From an uncultured Bacteroidales bacterium (GTDB lineage Bacteria > Bacteroidota > Bacteroidia > Bacteroidales > WCHB1-69), in contig CAJOFJ010000004.1 in assembly GCA_905233625.1 (NCBI GenBank), positions 76,427-140,426 of the forward strand: a DNA stretch of 64,000 nucleotides, written 5' to 3'. A program made the position numbers and the translations under genes. Of this stretch, positions 49,814-54,003 are shown one piece after another; position 1 is the stretch's first letter; every line of letters begins with the position of its first letter. The notes under the pieces are model-generated. The model was not told where the DNA came from. It ran no database searches and saw nothing but the letters and a program-made list of their open reading frames with translations.

Positions 49814-51412
49814 ATGGAAAAACTTTTGGAACAACTGTCAAAAATTGGTATTACCAATCCTCAAAAAATCTATCACAACTTGTCATACGATGAATTGTAC
49901 CAGCACGAAACCGACCCTTCACTGACCGGCTTCGACAAGGCTTATAAGACCAAAAGCGGCGCTTTGTCCGTGGATACCGGCGTGTTCACCGGCCGTTCGC
50001 CCAAAGACAAATACATTGTGATGGACGATGAGACCCGCAACAACGGTTCCGACAACCACCCCATCAACCACGAGATTTGGGAACATCTTAAAAAACTGAG
50101 CCAAAAGCAGTTGAGCGGCAAGGATATTTATGTAACCGATGGTTACTGCGGTGCTAACGAGAACTCCCGTCTGAAAATCAGATTTGTGACGGAAGTGGCT
50201 TGGCAGGCCCATTTTGTCAAAAACATGTTCATCCGTCCTTCAGAAGAAGATTTGGTAGGTTTTGAACCCGATTTTGTGGTGCTGAACAGCTGTAAGACCA
50301 CCAATCCCAATTGGAAAGAACAGGGCTTGCACAGCGAGAATTATGTAGCTTTCAACCTGACCGAACGTATGGCTTTGATTGGCGGTACCTGGTACGGTGG
50401 CGAGATGAAGAAAGGTATTTTCTCCGTGATGAACTACTTCCTGCCGCTGCGTGGCATGGCCGCTATGCACTGCTCTGCCAACGAGGGCAAGAAGGGCGAC
50501 ACCGCCATCTTCTTCGGCCTCTCCGGCACTGGCAAAACCACCCTGTCCACCGACCCGAACCGCGCCTTGATTGGTGATGACGAACACGGCTGGGACGAAA
50601 ACGGTGTGTTCAACTTCGAAGGTGGCTGCTATGCAAAATGTATTGACCTGAGCGAAGAGAAGGAACCCGATATTTTCCACGCCATTAAACGCGACGCTTT
50701 GCTGGAGAACTTAGTGGTGGATGCCGAAGGCAACATCGATTTCACCTCAGCAGCCAAGACCGAAAACACCCGTGTTTCTTATCCGATTTACCACATTGAT
50801 AATATTGTAAAACCCATTTCACGCGGTACTCACCCCAAGAAAGTCATCTTCCTGTCTGCCGACGCTTTTGGCGTGCTGCCTCCGGTATCTGTACTGAATC
50901 GCGAGCAGACCATGTACTATTTCCTGAGTGGTTACACTGCTAAATTGGCCGGTACTGAAGTGGGCGTGGTGACCCCGCAGCCTACCTTCTCTTCCTGCTT
51001 CGGAGCTGCTTTCTTGTTGCTGCACCCGACGAAATATGCTGAAGAGTTAGCCAAGAAACTGACCGAGCACAATGCTACCGCATATCTGGTGAATACCGGT
51101 TGGACTGGCGGCGGTTATGGTGTAGGCAGCAGAATCTCCTTGAAGGCCACCCGTGCCATCATCTCAGCCATCCTCAACGACGAACTGATTGGCTGCGAGA
51201 CCGAGATTGTGAAGCCCTTCAACCTCTCCATTCCGAAACATGTGAACGGTGTGGATGACAGCATTTTGAATCCGCAGAACAGCTGGACCGACAAAGCCGC
51301 TTACGCTGCCAGCGCCAAGCAGTTGGCCGAGTCCTTCATCAAGAACTTCAACAACTTCACCGAAACCGAAGAAGGCAAGAAGTTGGTGCCCTTCGGCCCG
51401 GTTGTGGAGTAA
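49814..51412 (+). CDS. pckA: Phosphoenolpyruvate carboxykinase (ATP)
   Basis: Kinase-1a motif [11 protein letters not shown], then IGDDEHGW, and typical length of 532 aa. Confidence 0.95.
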
Positions 51413-51619: not shown

Positions 51620-52151
51620 AATTGAGCGTTACTAATCACGATTTCGACAGTGCATTATGCCAGATTCTGTACATTTAGCCACATCCAACTACGACCTAAC
51701 TATTCCAACCAAATGGAAAGCATATCAAGGGAAATAATGTTAAACCAACATTATAAAAGGATGATGCATCCTCGCAGTCGCAATAAGCATGCTAAACGAT
51801 TACGAACACGACAGAATTGTCATTGCACAAATAGAGATGGAGATTTTGCATCATTTTAACAACATATTAAAACGATGCAAAAACACACAAAATATTTATT
51901 ATCGGACATAAACCGCATGGTCATCAAGAGCAGCAAGGCGGCATTCCACAAAGGCTATCTTGAACGCAGAACGTCAGGCTGATTTTATGGTCCATTGGAG
52001 TGCAACGAGGAAGTCCTCGGCGACCATGTAACCAACTACTATGGCGACAAAGTATTGGTCGAGTTCAAGCATTTGATCATCAACAAGGGGCGCATCAATG
52101 GGTGATATAAAAAAAAGTAAACCGAAAGGTTGACTATATCAAAAAAAAGTG

Positions 52152-52159
52152 TATTTTTG
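52152..52159 (+). promoter_or_regulatory. -7 promoter box (TATTTTTG) for the three-gene TA-chaperone module
   Basis: TAnnTTTG match. It overlaps the track ORF start at 52149, so the real start is probably GTG 52176. Confidence 0.5.
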
Positions 52160-52175
52160 CCGAAAATTTCATGCA

Positions 52176-52718
52176 GTGAAAGTTGACAGTAATCCTATAG
52201 TGGAAAACAGACTGTATGCCTTCTGGTTTGATGGCGACAGCGGCAATATATATGCCGTCACTATGGAACAGTTGTATGACAGGGAATGGCTTTGGGATTT
52301 CTTCAACAAGCACAAACAAGACCTCGGTTATTTTCATGTATCAGACATCTATGATGCCATCGAACGCACCATCGATGATTTAGAAATGATTGATGATTTA
52401 TTGTTGGATGAAACGACAGATTTGGACACCTATTTCCAGGATCTATCGCAAAATCATAAAGACCCATTTCTTCAACGAAACAAAGGGAAACTGACGTGTT
52501 TGTCAAATATGCATTATAACAGTTGGGTACGCTTCTATGCCATCAGAATAGAAGATGGTATTTATGTGCTTACAGGGGGTACTATAAAATTGACAGAGAA
52601 AATGCAGGACAGAGAGCACACCAATCAGGAACTGAATCGACTGGAACAATGCAGGGATTATTTGCTTGAACAAGGAATTTGCGATTTTTGCGGTTTTTAT
52701 GAATTTTTGAACGAATAA
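52176..52718 (+). CDS. Putative HigB/Gp49-like (RelE superfamily) toxin with N-terminal extension
   Basis: The C-terminal block VRFYAIRIEDGIYVLTGGTIKLTEKMQD..ELNRLEQCRDYL fits the Gp49/HigB pattern R.fY....g.i.ll.G..K......(E)i..a......yl. An XRE gene follows 12 nt later. Confidence 0.45.
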   Translation: MKVDSNPIVENRLYAFWFDGDSGNIYAVTMEQLYDREWLWDFFNKHKQDLGYFHVSDIYDAIERTIDDLEMIDDLLLDETTDLDTYFQDLSQNHKDPFLQRNKGKLTCLSNMHYNSWVRFYAIRIEDGIYVLTGGTIKLTEKMQDREHTNQELNRLEQCRDYLLEQGICDFCGFYEFLNE

Positions 52719-52730
52719 AAATATACGATT

Positions 52731-53150
52731 ATGACCACATTGGAAAAACTGAAACAAATCAGCGAGCCTGCCCCTTCCAATTGGAGAGAACAGGCACAGT
52801 GGAGAAAAGACAACCGCGATTGGTTACGTAAGTCTGGTCGAATTGCCGTTGCTGTGTTGGCGGCTATCGACGCAGATCCAGACATGAACCAAACGCTGTT
52901 GGCAGAGAAGATGGGCGTAACGAAGCAGTACATCAGTAAAATTGTGAAAGGGCAGGAAAATCTTTCTTTGCAGACCATCTGCAAGTTGGAGTCTGCATTG
53001 GGGATCACGCTGGTTGAAGTACAAGCTCCACAGACATTTCAAATGGCCACGCAGGTTGAGTACTGCCAGCATCAGTGGCTTATCTCAAAGCCGATACTCC
53101 TGGAGATGACATCTGCTGTTACTTATTCAGAATCATATCAAGTTGCATAG
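52731..53150 (+). CDS. XRE-family HTH antitoxin (HigA-like) with ~45-aa C-terminal extension
   Basis: The HTH is MNQTLLAEKMGVTKQYISKIVKGQENLSLQTICKLESALG. A hydrophobic/aromatic tail follows the HTH. Confidence 0.65.
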   Translation: MTTLEKLKQISEPAPSNWREQAQWRKDNRDWLRKSGRIAVAVLAAIDADPDMNQTLLAEKMGVTKQYISKIVKGQENLSLQTICKLESALGITLVEVQAPQTFQMATQVEYCQHQWLISKPILLEMTSAVTYSESYQVA

Positions 53151-53152
53151 CG

Positions 53153-53575
53153 ATGAAACATATAGGTTTTCTTATGAGACAAATACGGGTCAACCAGTTC
53201 GCCATACTGGCTGACGATGCGCCTTCCGGGGAAATTCCCGTCGAGTTTGGCGTACAATTTAAAACCGATACAGTTGGGAAATGGATTGCTGTAGCCTTCA
53301 TAACCCGGTATTTGAATGGTTCTGCTCCCCTATTGCTGCTGGAGATGCAATGCGACTTTCAGGTGAAGCCGGAAGACTGGGACTCTCTTATTTCCGACGG
53401 AAAATTAGTTTTTCCCGTCGAATTTCTGCGTCACATAGCACTTCACACGGTCGGAACAATGCGAGGTGTCCTCTTTTGCAAAACCGAAGGAACTGCATTC
53501 AGTAGATTCATTCTGCCAACTGTAAATCTTGAGGCAATGATCAACCAAGAGTTGATAATCCCATTAACGGAGTAA
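53153..53575 (+). CDS. SecB-like chaperone candidate
   Basis: 140 aa from ATG 53153, 2 nt after the antitoxin stop. By-eye alignment to E. coli SecB: IRVNQFAILADDAP ~ IQRIYTKDISFEAPNAP; LLLLEMQCDFQV ~ AFLCEVQQGGIFSI; FSRFILPTVNLEAMI ~ FPQLNLAPVNFDALF. Confidence 0.45.
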   Translation: MKHIGFLMRQIRVNQFAILADDAPSGEIPVEFGVQFKTDTVGKWIAVAFITRYLNGSAPLLLLEMQCDFQVKPEDWDSLISDGKLVFPVEFLRHIALHTVGTMRGVLFCKTEGTAFSRFILPTVNLEAMINQELIIPLTE

Positions 53576-53763
53576 GCCTGTTTTGTATCGTAATGTCTTG
53601 TGTGTCCCCCGCATTAAAATTTTTGAATTTTTTGCCGTCGTATACTAAAAAGAATTATTGTTGTCCGAAAAGACAAAAGCAGATATAAACTCGTCAAAAC
53701 AATGGGGAGCAGTTCTGATTAGGTAGTTTATGGCAAAATTCAACATTACAAGTCTGTCAGAAA

Positions 53764-53921
53764 TTGCAAAATTTGGTATTCCCAGATGGCATTTTATGGG
53801 ACAAGAAAATCGGCAATTATCGAACCCTGAAAATCAACGAAGCGATAGCTGTAATCACAAGAATATCAGATATTTATAAAACAACAAACGAGGGCTCATC
53901 ATCCTCGCTTGTCGCCTTTTG
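53764..53921 (+). pseudogene. Possible 3' remnant of a recombinase gene abutting tRNA-Leu
   Basis: The peptide LVFPDGILWDKKIGNYRTLKINEAIAVITRISDIY resembles, from memory only, the C-terminal region of Bacteroidota serine-recombinase-family proteins. No upstream reading frame remains. Confidence 0.2.
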
Positions 53922-54003
53922 TGCGGATAGGGGGACTCGAACCCCCACGGCTTTCACCACTAGATCCTAAGTCTAGCGCGGCTACCAATTACGCCATATC
54001 CGC
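53922..54003 (-). tRNA. tRNA-Leu (anticodon TAG)
   Basis: The reverse complement folds with acceptor stem GCGGATA/TATCCGC, anticodon arm CTAGA-CTTAGGA-TCTAG, a long variable arm, and T-arm GGGGTTCGAGTCCCC. Confidence 0.9.

Follow-up and report, generated by a model that had tools for sequence, protein, structure and literature searches.

Tripartite toxin-antitoxin-chaperone (TAC) systems have been described in Actinobacteria and Proteobacteria. In the HigB1-HigA1-SecBTA system of Mycobacterium tuberculosis (Rv1955-Rv1956-Rv1957), a toxin gene is followed by a gene for an XRE-family helix-turn-helix (HTH) antitoxin and then by a chaperone gene. HigA1 carries a C-terminal extension of ~40 amino acids (aa) that ends in Val-Ala; these last two residues are a ClpX recognition signal and lie inside the chaperone-addiction (ChAD) region bound by SecBTA (PMC8165232). 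Recent work has shown that TACs detect capsid or tail proteins of phages. In Escherichia coli HigBAC, MqsRAC, and CmdTAC, these proteins displace the antitoxin from the chaperone, which results in defense (PMC11618068, PMC9519451, PMC11980606): once a phage structural protein has freed the antitoxin tail, ClpP breaks the antitoxin down, leaving the toxin to abort the infection (PMC11618068; 10.1101/2024.02.24.581848). No main text among the TAC papers examined contains the word "Bacteroid", and Bacteroidetes seldom have canonical SecB (9 of 3813 SecB sequences; PMC4361572). Here, we describe a three-gene module from an uncultured Bacteroidales bacterium that is probably a TAC system. It lies in a stretch of 64,000 nucleotides (nt), referred to as the window (GenBank assembly GCA_905233625.1, contig CAJOFJ010000004.1, positions 76,427 to 140,426), and all coordinates below are those of the window unless a compared locus (L001 and so on) is named.

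The module consists of three co-directional open reading frames (ORFs) on the + strand, spaced by 12 and 2 nt. An earlier note, made from the letters of this DNA, had described three tightly packed genes in a TAC arrangement, and ORF calling reproduced both its coordinates and its gaps. The genes and the part of gene 2 that is central to our argument are as follows.

52176..52718 (180 aa) or 52149..52718 (189 aa, from a GTG), + strand: gene 1, putative toxin (ORF and membership in a long, "L-type" family)
52731..53150, + strand: gene 2, XRE-family HTH antitoxin of 139 aa, with HTH residues 52-96 at 52884-53018 (Pfam HTH_3, PADLOC)
53025..53147, + strand: C-terminal tail of gene 2, candidate ChAD tail with a ClpX-type degron (tail length, Val-Ala end)
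53153..53575, + strand: gene 3, SecB-like protein of 140 aa, putative dedicated chaperone of the antitoxin (AlphaFold2, Foldseek, family)

Each of the three genes belongs to a conserved protein family, and their order recurs at other loci; thus, we take them to be real genes rather than chance ORFs. Because the module combines the gene order of a TAC with a SecB fold for gene 3 and an antitoxin extension that is tied to the presence of the chaperone, we count it as a TAC system, and this is the probable explanation of the module as a whole.

The predicted fold of gene 3 and the tail of the antitoxin

To characterize gene 3, we modeled its product as a monomer with AlphaFold2. The model (predicted local distance difference test [pLDDT] = 93.6; predicted template modeling score [pTM] = 0.86) has four long β-strands followed by a long helix. 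When it was compared with the PDB using Foldseek, the matches ranked 1 to 15 were all SecB-type, which bears out the proposal in the earlier note that the third protein has a SecB-like fold. The top match was 5mtw (E = 1e-4), the M. tuberculosis toxin-antitoxin (TA) chaperone Rv1957 in complex with the HigA1 ChAD peptide. Other matches included E. coli SecB (1qyn; TM-scores of up to 0.59/0.61), Haemophilus influenzae SecB (1fx3), 5jtl, and the SecB-like structures 2o2a and 2hng. Against BFVD, the best two matches were phage proteins named SecB (TM-scores of 0.66/0.69 and 0.59/0.59). On the strength of this model, gene 3 very likely has a SecB-like fold. An exhaustive HMMER scan revealed a large family for this protein, with 1359 clusters at 50% identity matching at E ≤ 1e-3 and 722 at E ≤ 1e-10. 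Phe6 is conserved throughout the family alignment, so we place the start of gene 3 at 53153 rather than at Met8.

Gene 2 matches HTH_3 (PF01381) over residues 52-96 (45.9 bits, cut-off 23; E = 5.9e-12) and has weak matches to the HigA, HipB, and HI1420 antidote models (TIGR02684, E = 0.017). Beyond the HTH lies a tail of 41 aa (residues 99-139, QAPQTFQMATQVEYCQHQWLISKPILLEMTSAVTYSESYQVA) that terminates in Val-Ala. The earlier note had assigned an XRE-type HTH with a hydrophobic, aromatic extension of ~45 aa. The Pfam match and the presence of a tail agree with this assignment, but the described character does not hold for the family: although the tail in the window contains five aromatic residues, the tails of the family's antitoxins are rich in Ser, Thr, Gln, Lys, and Glu, look disordered, and are not hydrophobic. 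Apart from this composition and the ends considered below, they are unconserved across modules.

The window's toxin family occurs both with and without a chaperone gene, which allowed us to ask whether the tail accompanies the chaperone. A profile of the L-type toxins gave at least 577 matches in metagenomes. Among the 57 metagenome L-type loci with at least 1 kb of downstream sequence, 55 had no relative of gene 3, and most of these were plain toxin-HTH pairs; gene 3 was found only in the two closest relatives of the window. We then compared antitoxins paired with L-type toxins, counting tail length from the end of the HTH core. With gene 3 present (n = 15), the tails were 41 to 81 aa long, with a median of 52 aa, whereas without it (n = 53) the median was 11 aa. 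A C-terminal [VAI]-Ala was found in 8 of the 15 antitoxins with gene 3 and in none of the 53 without. Of the 38 antitoxins that lie beside gene-3 relatives, 31 ended in Ala and 26 specifically in [VAI]-Ala; of 124 background ORFs (≥200 aa), 4 and 1 did so, respectively. The differences in tail length (Mann-Whitney p = 2.7e-8) and in the Ala and [VAI]-Ala ends (Fisher p = 3e-22 and 8e-20) were calculated from related sequences, so that these p-values overstate independence. The extension is therefore absent from most chaperone-less homologues, with a separation that is not absolute. Since chaperone addiction is marked by a tail that accompanies the chaperone and carries a terminal protease tag (PMC5105189, PMC6377645), the module likely works by chaperone addiction of the TAC type.

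The three-gene order that the earlier note had likened to a TAC is not peculiar to the window; it recurs at genomic and viral loci. Scanning one genome per species, we found relatives of gene 3 at 40 loci, 37 of which are in Bacteroidota (Bacteroidales, Flavobacteriales, Chitinophaga, and Lentimicrobiaceae among them). Upstream sequence is available at a set of 37 loci, almost all from Bacteroidota; at every one of these an ORF ends within a few nt of the gene-3 relative, and at 36 of them it encodes an HTH protein. The antitoxin stop and the gene-3 start are tightly coupled, being either 2 nt apart or overlapping, and at most loci the first gene is a toxin of the L-type or of a shorter type (S-type) described below. 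In IMG/VR, 14 contigs carried gene-3 relatives, and the full triplet was present on 12. A tblastn search of gene 3 against GenBank phages gave no match, and one against plasmids gave a single match, on the megaplasmid pPP1 of Persicobacter psychrovividus (L045; NZ_AP025293.1, ~441.8-443.2 kb). This locus holds a complete triplet of L-type toxin, HTH, and SecB-like genes where the PLSDB table has no annotated genes. The L045 antitoxin ends in ...QQAL and not in [VAI]A.

Some loci have departed from the full triplet. At L011 (3347-3505), L014 (2958-3131), and L030 (1291-1443), the toxin is cut down to a fragment of 50 to 57 aa, next to an intact antitoxin and SecB-like gene. Toxin-less antitoxin-chaperone ("AC") derivatives have been reported for classical TACs (PMC3581621), and these three loci resemble them because the antitoxin and chaperone are kept and the toxin is fragmented. 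At L033 (3184-4426) and L057 (4986-5408), the gene-3 relative stands without a preceding HTH antitoxin or a recognizable L- or S-type toxin; at L033, two unannotated proteins of 131 and 143 aa occupy the place of the toxin and antitoxin, and the second ends in ...RKAA. L033 and L057 suggest that the SecB-like chaperone may have been recruited by other TA pairs.

The putative toxin and its family

Gene 1 belongs to the L-type family, whose members are 180 to 200 aa long and share the conserved core SWLRxYAIRIxxxxYxITGGxIKLTxxMxEREHT. K103, R119, Y121, K138, and H148 of gene 1 (counted in the 180-aa form) are invariant. In sister modules, the first gene instead encodes an S-type protein of 120 to 140 aa. 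The L-type is a large unannotated family of putative TA toxins in its own right. Bicistrons of an L-type toxin and an HTH protein without a chaperone are very common in gut and rumen metagenomes, as at loci L062-L139.

The relationship of gene 1 to known toxins runs through the S-type. Of 20 S-type toxins, 11 have a subthreshold match to Pfam Gp49 (best E = 9e-4) and 17 have one to NCBIfam TIGR02683 ("RelE/ParE family toxin" upstream of HI1419; best E = 6.8e-5). The L- and S-types are in turn linked by hhalign with 89-93% probability, over just 20 to 22 columns, and by hidden Markov model (HMM) cross-scores of up to 22.6 bits over ~100 residues (S-profile positions 23-124 against residues 80-180 of the L034 protein). 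They also share a PADLOC model, PDLC04756. The part of gene 1 that is remotely related to toxins is the C-terminal ~100 aa, preceded by an extra N-terminal region of ~75 aa that the short toxins lack. The earlier note had seen a Gp49/HigB pattern in the C-terminal third of gene 1. A remote link to such toxins does emerge by way of the S-type, but the aligned part is the C-terminal ~100 residues rather than the last third, and neither PF05973, which the note had proposed as a check, nor TIGR02683 matched gene 1 or any of 58 L-type relatives. We also considered gene 1 as an ImmA/IrrE-like protease and dropped this candidate, as no HExxH motif was seen by eye and no such Pfam match was obtained.

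A small protein encoded upstream of an HTH gene is the classic HigBA or Gp49-Gp48 layout (PMC3581621). The module resembles the Gp49/HI1419 toxins with their Gp48/HI1420 antitoxins (PF05973, TIGR02683/TIGR02684) in having the putative toxin gene ahead of an XRE-HTH antitoxin gene, in the subthreshold matches of the S-type toxins of its sister modules, and in the weak TIGR02684 match of gene 2. It differs in that gene 1 itself matches none of these toxin models, is ~70-80 aa longer at its N terminus, and has a poorly predicted fold. The toxin assignment is a chain of weak, remote similarities and is the weak link of the module. The toxicity of gene 1 is putative, based on the position of the gene and its remote resemblance to RelE/ParE proteins, and the chances are about even that it is a divergent Gp49/HigB-like RNase toxin of the RelE/ParE type with an extra N-terminal region.

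Promoter and genomic context

Three further features lie upstream of, or at the start of, gene 1.

52152..52159, + strand: Bacteroidetes-type -7 box TATTTTTG (matches TAnnTTTG)
52117..52134, + strand: inverted repeat GTAAACC-N4-GGTTGAC, candidate operator (conservation of its arms; overlaps the -33 region)
51917..52084, + strand: remnant of an upstream gene, a stop-interrupted 3' third (tblastn; left edge of the relic described below)

TAnnTTTG is the -7 consensus of Bacteroides promoters. The -7 box, which the earlier note had already picked out, is invariant across six homologous promoters, as are the ~25 nt that follow it and the inverted repeat, whereas these promoters are otherwise ~78% identical. 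Within the repeat, both arms are unchanged and only the 4-nt spacer varies. An extra GTTGAC is found at 52181-52187, just within gene 1; together with the inverted repeat, it may provide operator half-sites for the HTH antitoxin. Gene 1 has two in-frame GTG codons, at 52149 and 52176. Because the -7 box falls within the 189-aa reading frame and several homologues of gene 1 start at MKVDS, the start at 52176, giving 180 aa, is the more likely one.

The module is flanked on the left by the phosphoenolpyruvate carboxykinase gene pckA (49814..51412, PF01293) and on the right, on the other strand, by tRNA-Leu (53921..54003) and then the methionyl-tRNA synthetase gene metG. DNA homology to the closest loci begins between 51918 and 52111, depending on the locus (at 51918 for L001), and extends up to the exact stop of gene 3. 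In a tblastn search, 51917-52084 matched a 174-aa protein of L001 at 54% identity across 56 aa (E = 7e-15), and a stop interrupts the matched stretch. The gene for this protein directly precedes the same module in L001 (2457-2981) and L002 (352-855), in phage-like surroundings: the neighborhoods of these two loci include a phage amidase/endolysin or PHROG family, and that of L003 includes an integrase. The decayed remains of this phage-context gene at 51917-52084 identify the module as the relic of a mobile element. To judge from these alignments, the window copy is an intact cassette in a 1.7-kb mobile relic that is stranded between pckA and tRNA-Leu/metG.

Identical copies of the window module were found in several metagenomes. 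A search of the flanks for att-like direct repeats and for repeats derived from tRNA genes gave nothing convincing, and the base composition of the module (~39-47% G+C) lies between that of intergenic DNA and that of the housekeeping neighbors (~50%), giving no sharp island signal. Between gene 3 and tRNA-Leu, at 53742-53895 on the + strand, two overlapping frames look like the tail of one frameshifted protein (...NITSLSEIAKFG / LVFPDGILWDKKIGNYRTLKINEAIAVITRISDIYKTTNEG). We take them to resemble the C terminus of a Bacteroidetes serine recombinase; tblastn gave no confirmation, as searches against plasmids, phages, and the compared loci returned nothing except the same genome's own copies.

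Weighing the TAC interpretation

The module resembles the M. tuberculosis TAC in gene order, in an antitoxin extension of ~40 aa that ends in Val-Ala, and in that Rv1957 (5mtw) is the top PDB match of the gene-3 model. It differs from this system in several respects. Rv1957-type chaperones were found by PSI-BLAST and PF02556 (PMC3581621), whereas gene 3 is not detectable as a SecB by sequence; the toxin has 180 aa, an extra N-terminal region, and no Pfam match; and the host belongs to the phylum Bacteroidota. The E. coli antiphage TACs are likewise three-gene systems with a SecB-like chaperone that are found on mobile elements, and the cassette family of the window is prophage-borne and matches a PADLOC defense candidate (see below). 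In those systems, however, the toxin is of another family and the chaperone family is distinct in sequence, and the defense role of the window module is putative. What sets the module apart from known TACs is therefore a chaperone that Pfam does not see, toxins that are unannotated or below threshold, and a phylum in which canonical SecB is rare.

Several observations weigh against the TAC interpretation. For gene 3, the TM-scores to solved SecB structures are moderate (0.5-0.6, for a monomer model). PF02556, the Pfam SecB family that the earlier note had put forward as a check, did not match gene 3 or any of 67 relatives at E ≤ 1, and neither gene 3 nor its family profiles had a match in Pfam, NCBIfam, PHROGs, or PDB sequences. 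Alignment of gene 3 by hhalign with E. coli SecB, or with a SecB profile that was too narrow (the relatives returned were all >83% identical), was not significant (P = 0.2, 19 columns). The E. coli SecB query was confirmed as SecB by matches of 98-100% identity, all of which carry PF02556. The earlier note had aligned the protein to SecB by eye; hhalign chose the same C-terminal motif, F..[IL]LP.[IV]N, as its best local match to E. coli SecB, but this carries no significance at the sequence level. Gene 3 thus falls with SecB by predicted fold and outside the Pfam SecB family. For gene 2, the tail lacks the W-x-R...Y motif of the M. tuberculosis ChAD peptide, and some chaperone-less antitoxins have tails of 38 to 48 aa, which, along with the relatedness of the sequences compared, tempers the correlation between tail and chaperone. 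For gene 1, neither the protein nor the L-type family has a match in Pfam, NCBIfam, or the PDB, and PHROGs gave no match to the protein either. Its AlphaFold2 model, made from an alignment of 15 close sequences, is poor (pLDDT = 55.9), and the best Foldseek match, 6af4_A (which we read as a HigBA toxin chain, although it is annotated only as a Streptococcus pneumoniae toxin-antitoxin module; E = 0.96), is not significant.

The alternative that best survives these data is that genes 1 and 2 form an ordinary TA pair and that gene 3 is a SecB-fold sensor or accessory protein that serves defense or triggering rather than stabilization of the antitoxin. The preponderance of L-type toxin-HTH loci without gene 3 (55/57) fits this idea, as does the occurrence of gene-3 relatives beside non-HTH partners at L033 and L057. 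There is also a precedent in PD-lambda-2C, which is required for defense and not for neutralization, and Vassallo et al. described third components with a role in defense only (PMC9519451). However, it is where gene 3 is present that the antitoxin tail is longer and gains the [VAI]-Ala end, as chaperone addiction predicts. Even the non-HTH partner at L033 ends in ...KAA, and the stop and start codons of genes 2 and 3 are 2 nt apart or overlapping. We therefore consider an ordinary pair with an accessory protein unlikely.

Less likely still is that the module is no TA system at all but a moron or regulatory cassette of a prophage, with an XRE repressor between two accessory proteins of unrelated function and a gene 1 that is not toxic. 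Gene 1 has no recognized toxin domain, the module travels in prophage contexts, and XRE regulators are common in phage switches. Yet the short toxins that hold the equivalent position match RelE/ParE (17/20) and Gp49 (11/20) models and are remotely related to gene 1, the first two genes follow the HigBA or Gp49-Gp48 bicistron layout (PMC3581621), and the toxin-fragment loci L011, L014, and L030 fit the known AC derivatives of TACs (PMC3581621). Finally, it is very improbable that gene 3 is a general export or holdase chaperone that fills the SecB niche of Bacteroidota and stands beside a TA pair by chance: although this would suit its SecB-like fold, the scarcity of canonical SecB in Bacteroidetes (PMC4361572), and the ability of Rv1957 to replace E. 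coli SecB (PMC3581621), an antitoxin-like gene precedes every relative with visible upstream sequence, the distribution is sporadic and linked to prophages and viral contigs, and the window copy lies in a 1.7-kb mobile relic rather than in a housekeeping operon.

The module also corresponds to a defense candidate. All three proteins match, in order, models of the PADLOC system PDC-M64: gene 1 matches PDLC04756 (PDC-M64B; E = 3.7e-5, residues 121-168), gene 2 matches PDLC04760 (E = 2.3e-11), and gene 3 matches PDLC04763 (PDC-M64C; E = 1.8e-6). These are matches model by model and not a PADLOC system call; gene 1 and gene 3 match weakly and only in part, while relatives match over nearly the full length. 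PDC-M64 is one of 145 untested "guilt-by-embedding" candidates. It derives from cassettes that lie within BREX, DISARM, and type I restriction-modification loci and was built from a two-gene and a three-gene cassette with a common first family. This split mirrors that of L-type loci without and with gene 3. The main text of the PDC-M64 preprint offers no SecB or TAC reading, and the term "SecB" occurs in it 0 times.

Taken as a TAC, the module would work as follows. Gene 1 would be a growth-inhibiting toxin, most likely a very divergent RelE/ParE-type (Gp49/HI1419/HigB-like), translation-dependent RNase. Gene 2 would bind the toxin and probably repress the operon through the inverted repeat in the promoter. 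Its disordered 41-residue tail would destabilize the antitoxin, with Val-Ala as a ClpX-type degron, and gene 3 would bind this tail and guard the antitoxin from aggregation and proteolysis, so that the toxin is neutralized. If the chaperone were titrated away, the antitoxin would be degraded and the toxin released. If the module follows E. coli HigBAC and CmdTAC in this, newly made phage structural proteins may be what titrates the chaperone. The cassette probably travels with prophages or integrative elements of gut and rumen Bacteroidales as their cargo. In this scheme, we infer the binding of tail and chaperone, the dependence on ClpXP, the toxicity and RNase nature of gene 1, and the sensing of phage. 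An antiphage function, argued from the E. coli systems, is a possibility to which we give somewhat less than even weight. More tentatively, gene 3 may represent a large SecB-like family of ~1,360 clusters that is invisible to Pfam, is almost confined to Bacteroidota and their phages, and has been recruited by at least three kinds of TA pair (long L-type, short Gp49-like S-type, and non-HTH) as a sensor of phage structural proteins that triggers abortive infection; the L-type toxins would then either form a new multidomain branch within RelE/ParE or represent a toxin fold that is new.

The module would extend TAC logic to Bacteroidota by way of a chaperone family that has been missed by sequence annotation and of an unannotated toxin family. 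It gives the PADLOC candidate PDC-M64 a concrete functional reading. The occurrence of the same toxin family with and without a chaperone provides a natural experiment for chaperone addiction. If the module is a defense system, it would bear on phage-host dynamics, phage therapy, and engineering in gut and rumen Bacteroidales.

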